A stretch of 10,617 nt of DNA from Thermoproteaceae archaeon (GCA_020833025.1 JAJHRB010000054.1:1-10617); one strand, 5' to 3'. Positions 3,659-10,570 are shown, numbered from the stretch's first letter. Notes: a model not told the origin generated them from the sequence alone. Numbers and translations are program-made.

Positions 3659-4922
3659 GTGACCGGGAGCGAGCTGTGCGCCGCGGCTATACTGGCAATT
3701 GTCATCGCAGGCATGATCGCTAGGCCGCTGTTTCCCAGGCTGCCGGTCTGGTCGGTCATGTCCCTGGCCGCGTTTATTGCCGTCGTGCCCGGCCCTGTAT
3801 CCGTCGACCAGATACCGGCAATAGTGAACTTCGAGGTGCTGCTGTTCCTGATAGGCATGTTCTCAGTAGTGGCACTTGCCGAGTCTAGCGGCCTCCTTGA
3901 AGCAGTTGCATACTGGTTCCTCGGGCTCTTTCAGACGAGATATCAGGCAGCCGTCGGGGCGTCCCTTCTCTTCGGCCTCCTCGCGGCCATTGCCGTTAAC
4001 GACACGGTCGCGCTGATGGGGCCCCCAATAGCTGCAGCTCTGGCGCGCGCGGCGGGACTGCCGCCAAAGTTCGCGTTCCTCCTGCTCGCCTACTCACTCA
4101 CTATAGGCTCTGTCATGACGCCTATCGGAAACCCGCAGAACATGCTAATAGCCGTTATCTCAAACATGCAGGCCCCCTTCATAACATTTGTCAAGGTCCT
4201 CGCGCTGCTGACGCTCGTAAATCTTGTCATAACGCCGCTCCTCCTCGTCAAGTTGATGCGCGTGAGGAATGCGAGAGTTGCCGTGGTGGTGAGCCCGTGG
4301 GAGGCAATTAGGAACAGGAGGGACGCCATTCTTGCTGCAGTGTGGCTTGCTGCGACAATTGCGGCCATGGTGGCAAACGACGTGGCCGCCATAAGCGGGG
4401 CGCCGCACATACGCAATATAGGCGTGATACCCTTTGTCTCCGCAACGCTCCTCTACTTCCTCGCCAGCAGCCCGCGGGAGGTCGTCTCGCGCGTTGACTG
4501 GGGGGCCGTGCTCTTCTTTGCAACGATGTTCATTGCAATGAGAGCCGTGTGGGACAGCGGTCTGCTCTGGCCGCTGATCTCGGCGGCCCTGCCAGAGTAC
4601 CGCGGAAGCCCGGGAGACTTGCTGGCCATAATCGCCCTGTCTCTTGCGCTGAGCCAAGTGCTGAGCAACGTCCCCTTTGTGAGCCTCTTCTCGTCGCACC
4701 TCCTGCATGTAGGCGCCGACGCTAAGGCATGGCTAGCGCTCGCAATGGCAAGCACAATAGCCGGGAACCTCACACTGCTGGGGGCGGCGTCCAATATAAT
4801 AACTGGAGGTCCTCGAGAGGAAGTACGCGGCCACAATCACGTTTCTTGAGTTCCTGAAGCACGGCGCGCTAGTCACGGCAGTTAACGTGCTTGTCTACCT
4901 GCCGTTCGTCCTGCTCCTCTAG
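3659..4922 (+). pseudogene. ArsB/NhaD (ion transporter superfamily) anion permease, frameshifted near 4802
   Basis: Motifs NDT, GSVMTPIGNPQN, SNVP, AGNLTLLGAASNII. After AAT ATA ATA A (4793-4802) the sensible continuation is in another frame: CTG 4803 LEVLERKYAATITFLEFLKHGALVTAVNVLVYLPFVLLL, ending TAG 4920-4922. The unshifted ORF stops at 4849. Could be a sequencing error. Confidence 0.75.
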
Positions 4923-5612
4923 CGCCCTTCTGAGCTCCCTGAGAAACGCCACCGCCTCCTCCACGGAGCTCTTGAGTCTTCTGAGAAACGCCGTGCCCAC
5001 AACAACGGCGTCAGCCCCGGCCTTGATGACAGCCGCGGCCTTCGACGGGTTGTCTATCGCGAAGCCTGTAACGAGATAGGCGTCGCCGGCGAGCTCTCTG
5101 GCCAGCCTAATGTTCCTCTCGACGTAAACGGGAAGCTCTACTCCCGTCGCAGCATAGAGGCCGAGGTAGATGAACGCGGGCCTCAGCGAGGCCAGACGCC
5201 TGAGGAGCGCGTGGGGGAACTTGCCCGGCAGGAAGAACGCCAGCTCGAGCCCGTGGGCCCTGGAGAGCTCGATATAGCGCTGGAGCTCGCCGGGGTAGTC
5301 TATCAGCAGGTCGGGCGCCAGAACTCCCGCCGCGCCGACCTCTACCGCCGCGCTGAACAGCTCGCCGGGGCTCCCGGCGAAGTCCTCCCAGTACGCCATC
5401 AGGAATGCCTCGCCGCTCACGCGCGCCAGCTTAACGGGCTCTGCCTCCGCGTGAGCCCTCCTTATGAACGGGCCGTCGTACTTCGGGTTCCTGCTCGGCA
5501 GGCCCAGCTCCACGAAGTCCGCAGCCTCCCCGACGGCGCCGAGGGCCCTCATGAACGTGGCGACGTCCGGCCACCCGGCCAGCAGGTAAACGCCGAGGCC
5601 GGGCCTCCTCAC
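4869..5612 (-). CDS. trpA: Tryptophan synthase alpha subunit
   Basis: FVELGLPSRNPKYDGPFIRRAH corresponds to the catalytic Glu/Asp region; also GFAI and ADAVVVGTAF. GTGA overlap with the trpG stop. Confidence 0.92.
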   Translation of the reverse strand: MRRPGLGVYLLAGWPDVATFMRALGAVGEAADFVELGLPSRNPKYDGPFIRRAHAEAEPVKLARVSGEAFLMAYWEDFAGSPGELFSAAVEVGAAGVLAPDLLIDYPGELQRYIELSRAHGLELAFFLPGKFPHALLRRLASLRPAFIYLGLYAATGVELPVYVERNIRLARELAGDAYLVTGFAIDNPSKAAAVIKAGADAVVVGTAFLRRLKSSVEEAVAFLRELRRALEEQDERQVDKHVNCRD

Positions 5613-6190
5613 GGCGTCAAGTCAAGGAAGTTCTTGAATATTCTCTTGCCGTAAGGGGTCGCGACAGACTCAGGGTGGAACTGCACGCCGAATGTCGGAT
5701 GCTCGGCGTGCCTTATTCCCATTATCTCTCCGTCGTCGAGAGACCAGGCCTCCGCGATTAGCGCCGGCGGGAGCTCGTCGACGGCGAGACTGTGGTAGCG
5801 CACTGCAGCGAAGACCTCCGGGACGCCCCGGTACAGCGGGCCGCCCGCGTGGCGCACCACGCTGACCTTCCCGTGCCTCACCGTCCGTGCCCTTCTGATC
5901 CTCGCGCCGAAAACGTGCGCGACTATCTGGTGCCCCAGGCATATGCCGAGAATAGGCGCCCTCCCGCTGAATGCCCTCACTATCTCCGGCGAGTTCCCCG
6001 CGTCGCGCGGGTTCGCGGGATGTCCGGGGCCCGGCGAGATAACAACCCTGTCCGGCCTTATCCTCTCGACGACTCTCACCGTGACCTCGTCATTTCTGAG
6101 CACCACAGGCACGCTGCCCAGCTCGCCGATGTAGTGCGCTATGTTGTACACAAACGAGTCGTAGTTGTCTATTATCAGCGTGAGGTCCAC
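5609..6190 (-). CDS. trpG: Anthranilate synthase component II (glutamine amidotransferase)
   Basis: IDNYDSFVYN, ISPGPG, GICLGHQ (catalytic Cys), RYHSL, QFHPES (His-Glu). Confidence 0.96.
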   Translation of the reverse strand: MDLTLIIDNYDSFVYNIAHYIGELGSVPVVLRNDEVTVRVVERIRPDRVVISPGPGHPANPRDAGNSPEIVRAFSGRAPILGICLGHQIVAHVFGARIRRARTVRHGKVSVVRHAGGPLYRGVPEVFAAVRYHSLAVDELPPALIAEAWSLDDGEIMGIRHAEHPTFGVQFHPESVATPYGKRIFKNFLDLTP

Positions 6191-7476
6191 GGCGCCCCCT
6201 CGATGACGCTTTTCAGCGCCGAGAGCTTTATCTCGGTCTCCTTCAACTCCCTCTCGGGAGTCGAGTCGTACACCACGCCGGCTCCCGCCTGAATTTTAGC
6301 GCTTTCCCCCTGCACTATGATGGACCTGATTATAATTGCAAACTCGAGCAGCGACGGCGCGATGAAGCCGACAGCGCCGGCGTACAGCCCCCGGGGTCTG
6401 TCCTCGAGCTCTGCTATGATCTCCATTGCCCTGACTTTCGGCGCGCCGGAAACCGTGCCCGCCGGGTGTACGGCCAGGAGCGCGTCGACTGGGAGGTACC
6501 GCCTGTCAAGCATGCACCAAACCCGCGACACGATGTGCTGCACCCTGCTGTACTTCTCGACGGCGAACAACTCCTCGACCGCGACAGATCCCAGCCGGCA
6601 GACCCTCCCGATGTCGTTGCGGGCGAGGTCGACCAGCATTATGTGCTCCGCGAGCTCCTTCTCGTCTCTGAGCATGTCTTCCTCCAGTGCGAGGTCCTCG
6701 TCCTCGGTAGAGCCCCTCGGCCTGGTCCCGGCAATCGGGTGCGTCTCCACCCTGCCGTTCTGCACCTTCACGAGGAGCTCAGGCGACGTCCCGATCAGGT
6801 GGACGTCCCGGCACTTTATGAAGTACATGTACGGCGAGGGATTCGAGTCGGCGAGAGCCGTGTAGAGCCTGAAGAGGTTCCCCCTCGCCGTGTACTCAAT
6901 CCACCTGGACAGGACAACTTGCAGCACCTCGCCGCCGGCTATCCTTTCCCTCGCCTCCGCGACCCATTTCATGTACTCGCCGGGGTCGGTCATGTCGACG
7001 GGCCCTCTCACCTCCAGCGCGCCGGGCTGGGCTCTCGCCGCGCGCGGGAGCTCTCCTGCGACGTACCCCCTGCCCAGCAGCCTGTCGTAGATCGCGTAGC
7101 CCTCGGGTATGATAAAAAACGCCGTGGGGAGCCTGCTGTCAACCCTGCCGCGCTTGAGCAGCACGGGCTCGAGGTAGTATGCAGCCTCGTACGTCACCGC
7201 GCCGATCGCGACGCCTCCCCCGAACGGCCCGCCGCCTCGCTCCAGACCGCGCTGGACCTCGTAGAGGGCTTGCTGCAAGTCGGGACCGCTGGAGACATAC
7301 GCCCTCCTCACGCCCCATGCCACGAGCGTGTAGCGGGCCCGCTCGGCAAAGCCCTGTCCGGACTCCAGCAGCGCGACAAAGGGCTCTCCCGACAGGTACA
7401 GCCCGTGCGCTAGCTCGCGCGGGTCAGGCAGCCTCGACAGCGGGACCTTGACCAGGCCCCGGTCGCGGTCGGCCAC
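6175..7476 (-). CDS. trpE: Anthranilate synthase component I
   Basis: LLES and NPSPYM feedback motifs, SPELL, PIAGTRPRG, EHIMLVDLARND, PAGTVSGAPK, GAGVVYDS. GTG 7476 is the only canonical in-frame start upstream of the conserved N-terminus. Confidence 0.96.
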   Translation of the reverse strand: MADRDRGLVKVPLSRLPDPRELAHGLYLSGEPFVALLESGQGFAERARYTLVAWGVRRAYVSSGPDLQQALYEVQRGLERGGGPFGGGVAIGAVTYEAAYYLEPVLLKRGRVDSRLPTAFFIIPEGYAIYDRLLGRGYVAGELPRAARAQPGALEVRGPVDMTDPGEYMKWVAEARERIAGGEVLQVVLSRWIEYTARGNLFRLYTALADSNPSPYMYFIKCRDVHLIGTSPELLVKVQNGRVETHPIAGTRPRGSTEDEDLALEEDMLRDEKELAEHIMLVDLARNDIGRVCRLGSVAVEELFAVEKYSRVQHIVSRVWCMLDRRYLPVDALLAVHPAGTVSGAPKVRAMEIIAELEDRPRGLYAGAVGFIAPSLLEFAIIIRSIIVQGESAKIQAGAGVVYDSTPERELKETEIKLSALKSVIEGAPWTSR

Positions 7477-7487
7477 CCCGAGATCAT
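7410..7487 (-). other. Putative Trp-sensing leader ORF of trpE: MISGWPTATGAWSRSRCRGCLTRAS*
   Basis: ATG ATC TCG GGG TGG; ATG lies 26 nt from the first T of CTTAAAT; TGG 7475-7473 overlaps trpE GTG 7476-7474. Confidence 0.7.
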
Positions 7488-7507
7488 AGCAGCACGGCGG
7501 ACTGCAG

Positions 7508-7520
7508 ATTTAAGCATTTA
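7508..7520 (-). promoter_or_regulatory. TATA/BRE promoter of trpE-trpG-trpA
   Basis: Minus strand TAAATGCTTAAAT within the ~105-bp trpD-trpE gap. Confidence 0.7.
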
Positions 7521-7581
7521 GGCGTGAGGGGCCAGCGCGCCGTAGATAAGAACAGCGCGGCTCCCGCCGGTCTCGGCGCGC

Positions 7582-8577
7582 CTACTGCCAGGATGCCCTG
7601 ACGGCCTCCTCGAGCTTCGCGCGGGCCGCGCCCTCCCTGACGGCCCTCACGGCCAGCTCGTAGCCGTCCCTCAAGTCGCTCACGATGCCCGCGACGTAGA
7701 GAGCAGCAGCAGCGTTAACAGTAATGGCAGCCTCGGCCTCCCTGTGCTCTCCCCGCAGGCCGGCGAGGGCGACCGCAAGAGCCTCCTCTCTAGTCGAGAC
7801 GCGCGGGACGGGGGTTCTCGGAACGCCGAAGTCCTCGGGCTCCACAATGTAGCGCTCCACCCTCCCGCGCCTGACCTCGGCAACCTCAGTCGGCGCCTCG
7901 GCGCTCACCTCGTCTATGCCGGAGCCGTGCACCACGAGCGCGAAGTCCATAACTGCCGACGCGACGCCGGCGACTATGTCGAGCAGGCGCCTGTCGGAGA
8001 CGCCGACAAGCTGGCGCCTCACTAGCCCAGGATTTGCCAGGGGCCCGACTATGTTGAAGACCGTCCTGAAGGGGAGCTGCCTCCTCACGGAGGCCACCCT
8101 GGCAAACGCCGGGTGGTACCTCGGCGCGAAGACGAAGGCGAAGCCAAGGCGCTCGACCATCTCGGCAGCCCTCTCCGGCCCGACGTTGAGGTTGTAGCCC
8201 GCGGCCTCCATGAAGTCCGCGCTCCCGAAGAAGCCCGACGCGGACCTGTTGCCGTGCTTGAGCACCCTGGCGCCCGCGGCTGCGGCAACGATGGCAGCTG
8301 CCGTGGACAGGTTAATTGTCCTGGCCCCGTCGCCTCCCGTGCCTGCCGTGTCTATGGCCTCGACCCTCAGCGGCACCCTCACAGCAGCCTCGCGCGCGAA
8401 CTTGACAAAGCCGGCGACCTCCTCCGCCGTCTCGCCCCTGCAGCGCATTGCGGCCAGCGCCGCGGCGATCTGGACGTCGCTGAGACTGCCGGAAAGCATC
8501 TCCCGCGCGAGGAGGTACGCCTCGTCGGCGGATAAAGCCCTGCCGCCAGCGAGCTTCCTCAGCATCTCTACTGCCAC
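7582..8577 (-). CDS. trpD: Anthranilate phosphoribosyltransferase
   Basis: DTAGTGGDG, NLST, KHGNRSASGFFGSAD, FNIVGPLANP, DEVS. Start is uncertain: GTG 8577 (in the leader motif) or ATG 8565. The track's GTG 8592 lies upstream of the predicted transcription start. Confidence 0.95.
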   Translation of the reverse strand: MAVEMLRKLAGGRALSADEAYLLAREMLSGSLSDVQIAAALAAMRCRGETAEEVAGFVKFAREAAVRVPLRVEAIDTAGTGGDGARTINLSTAAAIVAAAAGARVLKHGNRSASGFFGSADFMEAAGYNLNVGPERAAEMVERLGFAFVFAPRYHPAFARVASVRRQLPFRTVFNIVGPLANPGLVRRQLVGVSDRRLLDIVAGVASAVMDFALVVHGSGIDEVSAEAPTEVAEVRRGRVERYIVEPEDFGVPRTPVPRVSTREEALAVALAGLRGEHREAEAAITVNAAAALYVAGIVSDLRDGYELAVRAVREGAARAKLEEAVRASWQ

Positions 8578-8588
8578 CCCGATGTCAT
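8568..8588 (-). other. Putative Trp-sensing leader ORF of trpD: MTSGWQ*
   Basis: ATG ACA TCG GGG TGG CAG TAG; ATG lies 26 nt from the first T of CTTATAAG; TGG 8576-8574 overlaps the in-frame trpD GTG 8577-8575. Confidence 0.7.
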
Positions 8589-8607
8589 GCACGCGCCGGG
8601 GGCGCCC

Positions 8608-8621
8608 CTTATAAGCTTTAG
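8608..8621 (-). promoter_or_regulatory. TATA/BRE promoter of trpD
   Basis: Minus strand CTAAAGCTTATAAG; the BRE-like part includes the protease stop codon TAA. Confidence 0.75.
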
Positions 8622-8962
8622 ACGGCCAGCAGCCCCACCTTCTCGAGGCGGCCCGTCACTGGGCTCACCGCATAGCCGAGTCTCTCGAGGGCCTGCACGC
8701 CGATTAGCACGTCGAGCGGGAGCTCGTCGAGGATCTCGACGAAGACCTCGGACTCCTCCCCCCACAGCCTTATCACCGCCACCGCGACCTCCACCCTCAC
8801 CCTTCTGCCGTCTACGGTCACCCTCTCCTTAGTTCTGAACGGCTTGAGCCCCGCCTCCTCGGCCACTCTCCTGCTCACCAGCACCTCCCCGTTAAAGCCC
8901 GTGTCAACGAGAGCCCTGTAAGTCCTCCCGCCGATCTCCACCTCTGCGAACGTTATGCCCAT
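8618..8962 (-). CDS. Clan AA (retropepsin-like) aspartic protease, small archaeal type
   Basis: 114 aa with catalytic ALVDTGF motif and C-terminal LIGVQAL. TATA TTTAATA (8988-8982) lies 26 nt before ATG 8962. Confidence 0.85.
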   Translation of the reverse strand: MGITFAEVEIGGRTYRALVDTGFNGEVLVSRRVAEEAGLKPFRTKERVTVDGRRVRVEVAVAVIRLWGEESEVFVEILDELPLDVLIGVQALERLGYAVSPVTGRLEKVGLLAV

Positions 8963-8981
8963 GCCCAGCCCGGCGTGCCGG

Positions 8982-9017
8982 TATTAAACCGCTCCCTGGC
9001 AGACAGGATAATAATAA
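8982..9017. promoter_or_regulatory. Back-to-back TATA boxes for the protease (minus) and the ATPase fragment (plus)
   Basis: TTTAATA at 8988-8982 on minus and TAATAA at 9012-9017 on plus; each first T is 26 nt from its start codon (8962 and 9038). Confidence 0.6.
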
Positions 9018-9037
9018 GACTGGCGTAAAGGCGGCAC

Positions 9038-9195
9038 GTGCACGCGAGAATTCGGAACTACCGCTGCTTCGGGGACGTCCAGCTGAGCGTGAGCGGCCCG
9101 CTGGCCGTGATAGTCGGGCCCAACGGTGCCGGCAAGACGGCGCTCCTGGAGGCGCTGCTCATCGGGGCGTCCAGGTGCCTGCCGCCGCCCCGGCG
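9038..9195 (+). pseudogene. N-terminal fragment of an SMC/ABC-like AAA ATPase
   Basis: MHARIRNYRCFGDVQLSVSGPLAVIVGPNGAGKTALLEAL has the I-x-N-Y-R-x-F start and a Walker A motif. Resemblance is lost after about 45 aa; the ORF runs on to TGA 9307 with no Walker B. Confidence 0.8.
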
Positions 9196-9310
9196 GAATG
9201 GCACGACGAGAATTGAAAGTGAGTGCCGGAAGTGTAAAAGAAAGGGCGAAATGCCTAAAAAAGTCGCGAAGGCAAAGCCGCAAGAGCGGAATCTCAGGAA
9301 GGATTGAAAA
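9196..9310 (+). CRISPR. Two degenerate CRISPR-repeat-like sequences separated by 69 nt (remnant or orphan mini-array)
   Basis: GAATGGCACGACGAGAATTGAAAG (9196-9219) and GAATCTCAGGAAGGATTGAAAA (9289-9310). Both resemble the Thermoproteaceae repeat recalled as GAATCTCAAAAAGAGGATTGAAAG (18/24 matches for the first). Only two copies, so not a canonical array. Confidence 0.5.
9236..9262 (-). terminator. Possible oligo-T terminator of trpB
   Basis: Minus-strand tracts TTTTTT (9262-9257) and TTTCTTTT (9243-9236) begin about 30 nt after the trpB stop. Confidence 0.4.
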
Positions 9311-10532
9311 TCTCGTACGCGTCGACGTCAAGAAGGCCGTGCCCCGACATGTTGAACGCGATGACGGAGCCCGGCGGCAGCTTCCTCGCGATGTCTACCA
9401 CCGCCTTGACGGCGTGGGCGGACTCGGGCGCCGGTATCACGCCCTCCGACCTCGCGAAGAGAATGGCCGCGCGCATCACCTCCTCCTGCGTGTACGCCAC
9501 TGCCTCGACGATGCCCAGGCGCCTGAGCAGCGAGAGGCTGGGGGCCGCCCCGTGGTAGCGCAGGCCGGCCGCATGCACGGGCGGCGGGACGTAATCGTGG
9601 CCGAGCGTGTACATCCTTATCATTGGGAGCGTGCCGACAGCGTCCGGGAAGTCGTACCTGTACTCGCCCCGAGAGAGCTTGGGCGCAGCTGACGACTCTG
9701 CCGCCACGAACCTCGCTCTCTCGAAGCCCTCGCCCCTCAGCCTCGCGCCTATCATCGGGTAGGCAAAACCGCCGAAGTTCGACCCGCCGCCGACGCAAGC
9801 CACGACGACGTCCGGCTCCTCGGGCAGCTGCCTGACCGCCTCGAGGCCTATCACGGTCTGGTGCAGCAGCACGAACTCCATCACGCTGCCGGGCAGGTAC
9901 TTCCTGCCCTCTCCGGACAGAACATACTCGACGGCCTCCGATATTGCAATGCCGAGAGAGCCCGGGTGGTCAGGCCTGTAGTGGCGCCTGCCGGCCTCCG
10001 TTATCTCGCTCGGGCTCGGGTGCACCACCGCCCCGTACGCCCTCATGAACGCCAGTCTCTGCCTCTTTGTCAAGTACGACGATCTCGTCATGAATACAGT
10101 GGCCCTCATGCCAAACAGCGCCGCGGCCAGCGCCACGGCCATCCCCCACTGCCCGGCGCCCGTCTCCGTGGCTACCTCGACCGCGCCGTCGGCCCTGGCG
10201 TAGTATGCCTGTGCTATTGCCGTGTTCAGCTTGTGACTGCCTGTCGGCAGCACTCCCTCGTACTTGTAGTATATGCGCACCCCCACGCCGAGTCTCCTCT
10301 CGAGACCCTCCGCCCTGAGCAGAGGAGTCGGCCTGCCGACCCTCCTGTAGGCCTCCCTGACCTCCTCGGGTATCGGCGCCCACCTCTCGGCGGAGAACTC
10401 CTGATCTATGAGGGCGGACGGGAGTATTCTCCTCAGCAGCGCAATTCTGCTCTCTCCCGCCTCGGGATCTCTCGGCGGCGGGAGAACTCCCGGGAGGTCC
10501 GCGGCTATGTTATACCACCTGTCCGGCACCAC
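9294..10532 (-). CDS. trpB: Tryptophan synthase beta subunit, TrpB2 type
   Basis: WYNI N-terminus, GRPTPL, PLP lysine in GSHKLNTA, TETGAGQWG, HPGSLGIAISEA, CVGGGSN, GLRYHG, PAPESAHA, NMSGHG. These signatures match TrpB2. Confidence 0.96.
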   Translation of the reverse strand: MVPDRWYNIAADLPGVLPPPRDPEAGESRIALLRRILPSALIDQEFSAERWAPIPEEVREAYRRVGRPTPLLRAEGLERRLGVGVRIYYKYEGVLPTGSHKLNTAIAQAYYARADGAVEVATETGAGQWGMAVALAAALFGMRATVFMTRSSYLTKRQRLAFMRAYGAVVHPSPSEITEAGRRHYRPDHPGSLGIAISEAVEYVLSGEGRKYLPGSVMEFVLLHQTVIGLEAVRQLPEEPDVVVACVGGGSNFGGFAYPMIGARLRGEGFERARFVAAESSAAPKLSRGEYRYDFPDAVGTLPMIRMYTLGHDYVPPPVHAAGLRYHGAAPSLSLLRRLGIVEAVAYTQEEVMRAAILFARSEGVIPAPESAHAVKAVVDIARKLPPGSVIAFNMSGHGLLDVDAYEIFNPS

Positions 10533-10543
10533 CCCGACGTCAC
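10505..10543 (-). other. Putative Trp-sensing leader ORF of trpB: MTSGWCRTGGIT*
   Basis: GTG ACG TCG GGG TGG; GTG lies 26 nt from the first T of CTTTTAAG; TGG 10531-10529 overlaps trpB GTG 10532-10530. Confidence 0.65.
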
Positions 10544-10562: not shown

Positions 10563-10570
10563 CTTAAAAG
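10563..10570 (-). promoter_or_regulatory. TATA box of trpB
   Basis: Minus strand CTTTTAAG, with the same geometry as the trpD and trpE promoters. Confidence 0.7.

Follow-up and report, generated by a model that had tools for sequence, protein, structure and literature searches.

Candidate tryptophan-starvation frameshift leaders at the trp genes of a Thermoproteaceae archaeon and a wider set of leaders with pathway-matched codons

The window analysed here, the whole 10,617-nucleotide stretch of DNA from a Thermoproteaceae archaeon (GCA_020833025.1 JAJHRB010000054.1:1-10617), carries the tryptophan biosynthesis genes trpB, trpD, trpE, trpG and trpA, and the subject of this work is a short leader open reading frame (ORF) that overlaps the start of each of the first three and is considered as a candidate -1 frameshift switch responding to tryptophan starvation. 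All window sites lie on the minus strand, and positions are counted from the first letter of the stretch (Table 1). The leaders open with GTG ACG TCG GGG TGG at trpB (10543-10529), ATG ACA TCG GGG TGG at trpD (8588-8574) and ATG ATC TCG GGG TGG at trpE (7487-7473), and the leader frame runs for 12, 6 and 25 sense codons, respectively, before a stop, with the peptides VTSGWCRTGGIT, MTSGWQ and MISGW...AS. The annotated GTG of each gene is composed of the last G of GGG and the TG of TGG, which places the gene in the -1 frame of its leader, and there is one Trp codon per slip site, G GGG TGG; in trpE, this GTG is the sole ATG, GTG or TTG of the gene frame upstream of the conserved KVPLSRLP. The M-(T/I)-S-G-W leaders, the overlap of the gene GTG with the Trp codon and the distances to the stops had been put forward in a preliminary description, and all are confirmed in the minus-strand sequence.

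Table 1. Leaders, promoters and coding frames of the trp genes in the window.
Feature	Coordinates	Strand	Remarks
TATA-like box, trpB promoter (CTTTTAAG)	10563..10570	-	start 27 nt upstream of leader GTG 10543
trpB leader mini-ORF, GTG ACG TCG GGG TGG ... TAG (VTSGWCRTGGIT, stop)	10505..10543	-	orthologous leaders MSSGW, MASGW or MSGW, then stop
trpB slip site and sensor, G GGG TGG	10529..10535	-	invariant in all orthologues; predicted -1 re-pairing GGG to GGG, A-site UGG to GUG
trpB (TrpB2-type pyridoxal-phosphate enzyme) coding frame, -1 relative to leader	9294..10532	-	PALP domain; VVPDRWYNI aligned with orthologue N-termini
TATA-like box, trpD promoter (CTTATAAG)	8608..8615	-	27 nt upstream of ATG 8588
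trpD leader mini-ORF, ATG ACA TCG GGG TGG CAG TAG (MTSGWQ, stop)	8568..8588	-	orthologues with same layout
trpD slip site and sensor, G GGG TGG	8574..8580	-	conserved in orthologues
trpD coding frame, -1 relative to leader	7582..8577	-	served as query; orthologues in 28/31 related genomes
TATA-like box, trpE promoter (CTTAAATC)	7507..7514	-	27 nt upstream of ATG 7487
trpE leader mini-ORF, ATG ATC TCG GGG TGG ... TAG, 25 sense codons	7410..7487	-	sequence reading
trpE slip site and sensor, G GGG TGG	7473..7479	-	sequence reading
trpE coding frame, -1 relative to leader	6175..7476	-	Chorismate_bind and Anth_synt_I_N domains
trpG	5609..6190	-	GATase domain; 16-nt overlap with trpE end
trpA	4869..5612	-	Trp_syntA domain; 4-nt overlap with trpG end

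The position of the leader start codons relative to the promoters was assessed with a TATA-like 8-mer class, [CT]TT[AT][AT]A[AT]N, calibrated against the in-frame ATGs of long ORFs over the whole assembly, which is incomplete and comprises 1.56 Mb in 126 contigs. The start of the 8-mer peaks at -27 and -28 from these ATGs (37 and 34 matches, against a background of 0-7), and in all three window leaders it lies 27 nt upstream of the leader NTG; the leader NTG thus occupies the usual position of a leaderless start codon, while the trp GTG would lie at -38, a background position. The spacing of 26 nt from the first T of the TATA box in the preliminary description agrees with this count and corresponds to the modal leaderless spacing of the genome. 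The 14-mer TGANNTCGGGGTGG has four matches in the assembly, all four at trp-gene promoters with equal TATA spacing; the fourth copy (contig C88, 15260), 27 nt from a TATA box, precedes a second TrpB-like gene (NCBIfam PRK12391). Within the window, three matches of the motif are present against 0.63 expected. The preliminary description had proposed a genome-wide count of the motif and a comparison with non-trp genes, and the version with TGG proved to be limited to trpB, trpD, trpE, trpB2 and trpS. Other genome matches of the pattern ATG-N(0-3)-TCGGGGTGG were dismissed, being devoid of a TATA box and inside or antisense to coding sequence; a recurrent one is the antisense of the TrpG motif GVQFHPES.

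The window genome and its close relatives are taken here to be Pyrobaculum. The exact motif TGANNTCGGGGTGG gives only scattered matches in 40 relatives because codon 2 of the leader differs there, and the real conservation was seen by aligning the upstream regions of orthologues. In such alignments, which the preliminary description had suggested, the leader is kept at both trpB and trpD: ATG-(0/1 codon)-TCG-GGG-TGG precedes trpB and trpD in all 16 other Pyrobaculum genomes examined, and trpB in five Thermoproteus; the 15 same-genus trpD orthologues with an intact 5' end have ATG-NNT-TCG-GGG-TGG without exception. G GGG TGG is invariant at the orthologous sites of both genera. By contrast with this core, codon 2 is free (GCT, GCC, TCT, TCC, TCG, CAT, ACA, ACG, ATC, or absent), the form without it, ATG TCG GGG TGG, being present in two separate Pyrobaculum groups, and the position of the stop in the leader frame also varies. 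The leader ATG is in frame with TGG at about 35 orthologous sites, with length changes that are codon-sized only (9, 12 or 15 nt) and an ATG-TCG spacing at promoters of either 0 or 3 nt, and the sole change of the first codon is from ATG to GTG. The maintenance of the frame, the replacement of one start codon by another and the freedom of codon 2 argue for a translated unit rather than a DNA motif indifferent to frame. A shorter form, ATG GGG TGG, precedes the tryptophanyl-tRNA synthetase gene (TrpRS, trpS) in about 22 Pyrobaculum and Thermoproteus genomes, and is also found at one TrpB paralog of Thermoproteus (L101), which lies in the -1 frame while its orthologues from four other genomes begin at an ordinary in-frame ATG. 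The cultivable P. calidifontis and P. aerophilum are taken to be among the species with these trpB, trpD and trpS leaders. The TrpRS leader of the window genome (contig C31:1937, minus strand; MGWALPGRDAM...) further contains, five codons past the Trp site, another G_GGG site, CCG GGG AGG (Arg), from which the same -1 frame would be entered.

The same leader layout recurs at genes for other amino acids. The assembly was scanned strictly, for short ORFs that start 26 to 29 nt from a TATA box and are accompanied by an open long ORF in a different frame, and more loosely, with GGGG as the anchor, the genes outside the window being identified from NCBIfam. Both scans recovered the trp sites together with further G GGG leaders, the gene always lying in the -1 frame. 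The codon after G GGG, the putative sensor, is CTC (Leu) at the genes for 2-isopropylmalate synthase (leuA) and acetolactate synthase (ilvB), ACG (Thr) at threonine synthase (thrC), CGA (Arg) at argininosuccinate synthase (argG) and the small subunit of carbamoyl-phosphate synthase (carA), ATC (Ile) at citramalate synthase (cimA) and Ile-tRNA ligase (ileS), AAA (Lys) at homocitrate synthase, TGG (Trp) at Trp-tRNA ligase (trpS) and TGT (Cys) at a Cys-synthase-like gene; the gene for an N-terminal transketolase of the aro type (tkt) has both TAC (Tyr) and TTC (Phe), each after its own G GGG. Overall, a codon cognate to the pathway or synthetase follows G_GGG at 12 of the 13 strictly filtered sites and at 15 of all 16 sites. 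In ten of these eleven further genes, the gene frame holds no ATG, GTG or TTG ahead of conserved N-terminal motifs (e.g., DTTLRDGEQ or LAYSGGLD); leuA, thrC, argG, cimA, ilvB, the homocitrate synthase gene, tkt, ileS and carA are the startless genes by name, and their products would therefore be reachable only through a -1 shift on G GGG. Of 26 related genomes, 24 retain TCG/ACG GGG CGA at argG, and in many a stop in the gene frame lies two codons upstream of the slip point. The trp and trpS sites differ from the startless members in that the GUG is in frame with the gene and offers, in principle, an alternative start route.

Several of these sites have particularities of their own. The transketolase leader (contig C61:21284, minus strand) reads MQGYSALERSGFSS up to its stop, and its slip sites, CAG GGG TAC (Tyr) and TCG GGG TTC (Phe), share one -1 frame; such a two-site leader would allow either of two aromatic amino acids to be sensed. 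The Cys-synthase-like pyridoxal-phosphate enzyme (contig C74:3095, plus strand) is encoded in the -1 frame behind ATG TTG GGG TGT (MLGC...); its matches to CysK, CysM and SbnA are weak, all below the curated cut-offs, and its TATA spacing, of about 31 nt, is less typical. In most Pyrobaculum genomes, the leader ATG of argG falls within the 3'-terminal part of the preceding gene, whose end, ...EEFKGDVEDYGE, may encode a LysW-like tail; the argG leader is there internal to an operon and not at a leaderless 5' end. The loose scan also gave probable false positives, either mid-gene or fortuitous, at a helicase, a HypF fragment and two unknown ORFs.

A comparable arrangement with different details is found in a sister family, that of Vulcanisaeta and Caldivirga, which is taken to include V. 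distributa, V. moutnovskia and Caldivirga maquilingensis. Their trp operons (L102-L110) have the order trpA-trpB-trpD-x-trpE, and trpA is preceded by a mini-ORF that ends in (P/L)-CAA-TGG-NNN-TAA, with peptides such as MPQWS, MRDGKLQWV and MMVTMKLQWR, the stop being always one codon past TGG. The trpA ATG consists of the A of CAA and the TG of TGG, and the gene is again in the -1 frame behind a single Trp codon, with no G run. In the same genomes, TrpRS follows a U AUC UGG junction, at -1 and with no start codon in the gene frame; argG and thrC, both at -1, follow A AAC CGG and G GAA ACN, respectively, and cimA follows GAA ATC in the +1 frame. A GGAAACC string recurs near several of the starts in this set (argG, thrC, trpS and cimA). 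A third genus, belonging to the family of Pyrobaculum, seems to lack leaders at the genes checked: genome G018 has ordinary in-frame ATG starts at trpS and argG (as does G020 at argG), and its trpB and trpD are tightly coupled, trpD being devoid of a leader and the start of trpB lying off-contig. On sequence grounds, the principle of a cognate codon at a frame junction thus extends across the order; the slip codons of Vulcanisaeta and Caldivirga are different, some of them re-pair poorly, and the mechanism may therefore vary there in its details.

From the layout, the conservation, the specificity and the missing starts observed at the non-trp members, a transcription start at the leader, a ribosomal slip and a dependence of this slip on charged tRNA can be predicted. 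Each of the three window promoters would give a leaderless mRNA, the 5'-terminal AUG of which (GUG for trpB) opens the M-x-S-G-W mini-ORF. When Trp-tRNA is plentiful, UGG would be read and translation would terminate 1 to 21 codons further on, without enzyme being made; when it is scarce, the A site would stay empty at UGG, and the peptidyl-tRNA(Gly) on GGG would slip one base back onto the identical G-GG. The A-site codon would then be GUG (Val), and translation would run into TrpB, TrpD or TrpE, followed by TrpG and TrpA through overlapping stop/start coupling. The shifted N-termini are predicted to be M-T-S-G-V-V-P-D-R-W-Y (TrpB), M-T-S-G-V-A-V-E-M-L-R (TrpD) and M-I-S-G-V-A-D-R-D-R (TrpE). 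Under this scheme, a shortage of Trp-tRNA leads to slippage and this to enzyme, which is the right direction of regulation, whereas a plain stall or termination-reinitiation would give the opposite. Downstream of the slip sites, no significant RNA structure was detected in the 82 nt from each leader start (z = 0.22, -0.27, -1.92 and 0.12, with 37 C parameters), and the absence of a stimulatory structure fits a regime of stimulator-independent, 'hungry' frameshifting.

The most serious competitor of this scheme is ordinary initiation at the GUG, by which the trp enzymes would be started internally on an 11-nt 5' region, the mini-ORF being a decoy or upstream ORF that reduces or modulates initiation, or feeding reinitiation, with no frameshift. 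GUG is a legitimate start codon that shares the gene frame at every trp and trpS site, the overlapped codon is ATG in Vulcanisaeta and Caldivirga, and the many trpB leaders with a stop (TAG, TGA or TAA) right after TGG are compatible with termination-reinitiation. The GUG is, nevertheless, an automatic product of GGG followed by UGG and so does not constitute independent evidence, and a leader stop placed 1 to 21 codons past TGG is too variable for reinitiation. Moreover, a ribosome stalled at UGG would cover the GUG, as the preliminary description had reasoned with regard to the direction of regulation and as is agreed here, so that starvation would act in the wrong sense; the invariance of G GGG would be left without explanation if any NNG codon sufficed, and ten non-trp members of the class lack any start codon ahead of their conserved N-terminal motifs. 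Internal initiation at GUG is, in consequence, considered improbable.

A -1 frameshift that is real but constitutive, providing a fixed low expression without any sensing of amino acids, is compatible with the presence of G_GGG sites in many ordinary genes. Such a shift does not account for the cognate codons at 12 of 13 strict and 15 of 16 overall sites, where the chance per site is at most about 0.1 and the agreement is unexpected without selection for sensing, nor for the aro leader, in which the Tyr and the Phe codon each follow their own G GGG, and it is regarded as very improbable.

The nucleotides of the motif are conserved even where a change in TCG or GGG would be synonymous, its distance from the TATA box is constant and it is restricted to trp genes, all of which would also be expected if ATGNNNTCGGGGTGG were a DNA operator for a Trp-responsive transcription factor over the transcription start, with an incidental resemblance to coding sequence. 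The motif, however, has no dyad symmetry, the indels between ATG and TCG are codon-sized only, the first codon changes only from ATG to GTG, and the TC is dispensable, as in the ATG GGG TGG of trpS and L101; in addition, the G GGG core takes different, pathway-matched codons at other operons, which one DNA-binding protein cannot explain, and an operator is thus hardly credible. Equally hard to credit is a change of frame at the RNA or DNA level, through slippage of RNA polymerase or misassembly of the G run. The junction does invariably fall on a homopolymer, assemblies often go wrong by homopolymer indels and the window derives from a 126-contig assembly, but over 20 independent genomes, single-contig ones included, show an equal frame offset, known transcriptional slippage runs are far longer than four G, and neither slippage nor assembly error explains why the next codon matches the pathway.

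Some observations weigh against ribosomal frameshifting itself. The -1 codon at the trp genes is necessarily GUG, a usable start codon, and in the QueE-like radical-SAM gene (contig C10:3221, minus strand), which lies in the -1 frame behind ATG GGG GGA GAG (MGGERREP, then stop), the GGA has no cognate logic, although an in-frame GTG further down could be the real start of this gene. The Trp codon of Vulcanisaeta and Caldivirga follows CAA or AUC, for which -1 re-pairing is poor. In-frame G_GGG is, furthermore, frequent in ordinary ORFs, with 2539 occurrences where 2867 are expected (ratio 0.89; 0.96 for TCG_GGG); this weak or absent depletion indicates that the run is only conditionally slippery and that leader sites need another factor for efficiency, candidates for which are a long vacancy of the A site or proximity to the 5' end. 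ARAGORN detected no tRNA-Gly(CCC), but it recovered only 13 tRNAs from the incomplete assembly, with Gly(GCC) as the sole Gly species, and the result is uninformative.

On balance, the hungry-codon -1 slip proposed in the preliminary description is largely upheld, since every prediction at the sequence level is borne out and the startless non-trp members add to it, while at the trp genes themselves initiation at GUG is possible in principle. The combination of a G-GGG core with pathway-matched codons and startless genes speaks for frameshifting rather than for GUG initiation or a DNA operator, and, as judged by sequence comparison, ribosomal frameshifting is the sole reading that covers the whole leader class; at the trp genes, it is supported by the geometry, the conservation of frame and the analogy with the startless members. 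The trp leaders are, then, very likely a Trp-starvation -1 frameshift switch and the Trp member of a genome-wide set of leaders, formed by G GGG and a cognate codon, on biosynthesis and aminoacyl-tRNA synthetase genes of Pyrobaculum and Thermoproteus.

The proposed switch shares elements with several known systems. In the bacterial prfB gene, release factor 2 autoregulates its own synthesis through a +1 frameshift at a stop codon, with an internal Shine-Dalgarno stimulator; there, as is proposed for the archaeal leaders, the shift is early and the A-site codon waits on the gene's product or its consequence, a shortage of which lengthens the pause, promotes the slip and yields the product, but here the shift would be of -1, at a sense codon, and in a regulon with one sensor codon per amino acid, in contrast to the single prfB gene. 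Bacterial transcription attenuation by trpL, thrL, pheL, hisL, leuL and ilvL depends on terminator and antiterminator hairpins and on a separate downstream gene with its own start. As in these, a short leader ORF with codons for the end product would read the supply of charged tRNA by ribosome pausing, whereas in the archaeal leaders there are no hairpins and no spacer, the leader overlaps the gene, there is usually a single sensor codon and the reading frame itself would serve as output. Canonical -1 programmed ribosomal frameshifting takes place on X XXY YYZ with a pseudoknot or hairpin, and differs in that G GGG UGG bars re-pairing of the A-site tRNA(Trp) and no downstream structure is present.

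The closest relation is with hungry-codon -1 frameshifting in E. coli (Gallant and Lindsley 1992), which, in the account given in a review of recoding (PMC8211752), involves the slip of a single P-site tRNA with a vacant A site and no downstream stimulator. The P-site GGG of the window can likewise re-pair at the -1 triplet, and the A-site codon is relevant to the gene and one for which aminoacyl-tRNA can become limiting; the E. coli case is, however, a laboratory effect in reporter genes, and what is described here is apparently an evolved and conserved 5'-end switch paired with its cognate pathway. In mycobacteria, leaderless short poly-Cys ORFs act as Cys-responsive attenuators (bioRxiv 10.1101/834739), and, to the extent that this source describes them, they resemble the archaeal leaders in that a leaderless mRNA begins with a sensor ORF of cognate codons upstream of biosynthesis genes, and differ in that operon attenuation is reported, with no frameshift into the enzyme frame mentioned in the part of the report on which this comparison is based. 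Among archaea, fucA1 of Saccharolobus solfataricus is the only -1 frameshift in the 2021 archaeal recoding review (PMC8211752); a -1 shift is there also needed for the full-length enzyme, but it concerns one gene, joins two enzyme halves and has no described link to amino-acid supply. The proposed system has elements of several known kinds, namely hungry-codon frameshifting, autoregulatory frameshifts such as that of prfB, and leader-peptide sensing.

Around these leaders, the organization of the window departs in some respects from that of its relatives. Between trpB and trpD lie a gene for a retropepsin-like aspartyl protease of 114 residues (8618-8962, minus strand; Pfam Asp_protease_2) and a second ORF (8984-9331, minus strand) called an ATPase fragment in the preliminary description; by comparison with most relatives, in which trpB directly abuts the trpD promoter, the two look like an insertion. 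In L034, the only relative read at the trpD-trpE junction, trpE is leaderless in this sense and starts within the stop of trpD (ATGA). The window has instead, at 7487-7582, a spacer of about 100 nt with a new TATA box, and in addition a Trp leader of its own and an N-terminal extension of TrpE by 9 residues. The Trp sensor of trpE thus looks like a recent gain in the window genome. The trpC and trpF genes (contigs C28:28751 and C40:9032) lie elsewhere in the genome and have ordinary in-frame leaderless GTG starts and no Trp sensor; only part of the Trp pathway would be under leader control.

A full-text literature search for a description of this leader system found none, and the trp leaders appear to represent a hitherto undescribed switch, which would activate a pathway in response to a shortage of its charged tRNA. 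To our knowledge, the ways in which archaea sense amino-acid supply after transcription are largely obscure. The comparison across genomes makes it likely that the Thermoproteales, without bacterial attenuation or T-boxes, govern most of their amino-acid biosynthesis operons, together with several aminoacyl-tRNA synthetases, through frameshift sensors of codon resolution that sit at the 5' ends of largely leaderless mRNAs, with G GGG in the P site in Pyrobaculum and Thermoproteus, and C CAA, A AAC, G GAA or U AUC, again before a cognate codon at the frame junction, in Vulcanisaeta and Caldivirga. One consequence concerns annotation, as gene callers must mis-start or truncate such genes, and only at the trp genes does a GUG hide the missing start. 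If the proposal is correct, a hyperthermophile would use the reading frame itself as a switch, in which a slippery run and one codon report the charging of one tRNA and license the matching pathway or synthetase; this would represent a third solution beside bacterial attenuation and T-boxes, a general amino-acid sensor of archaea free of RNA structure, which would be sensible for life near 100 C.

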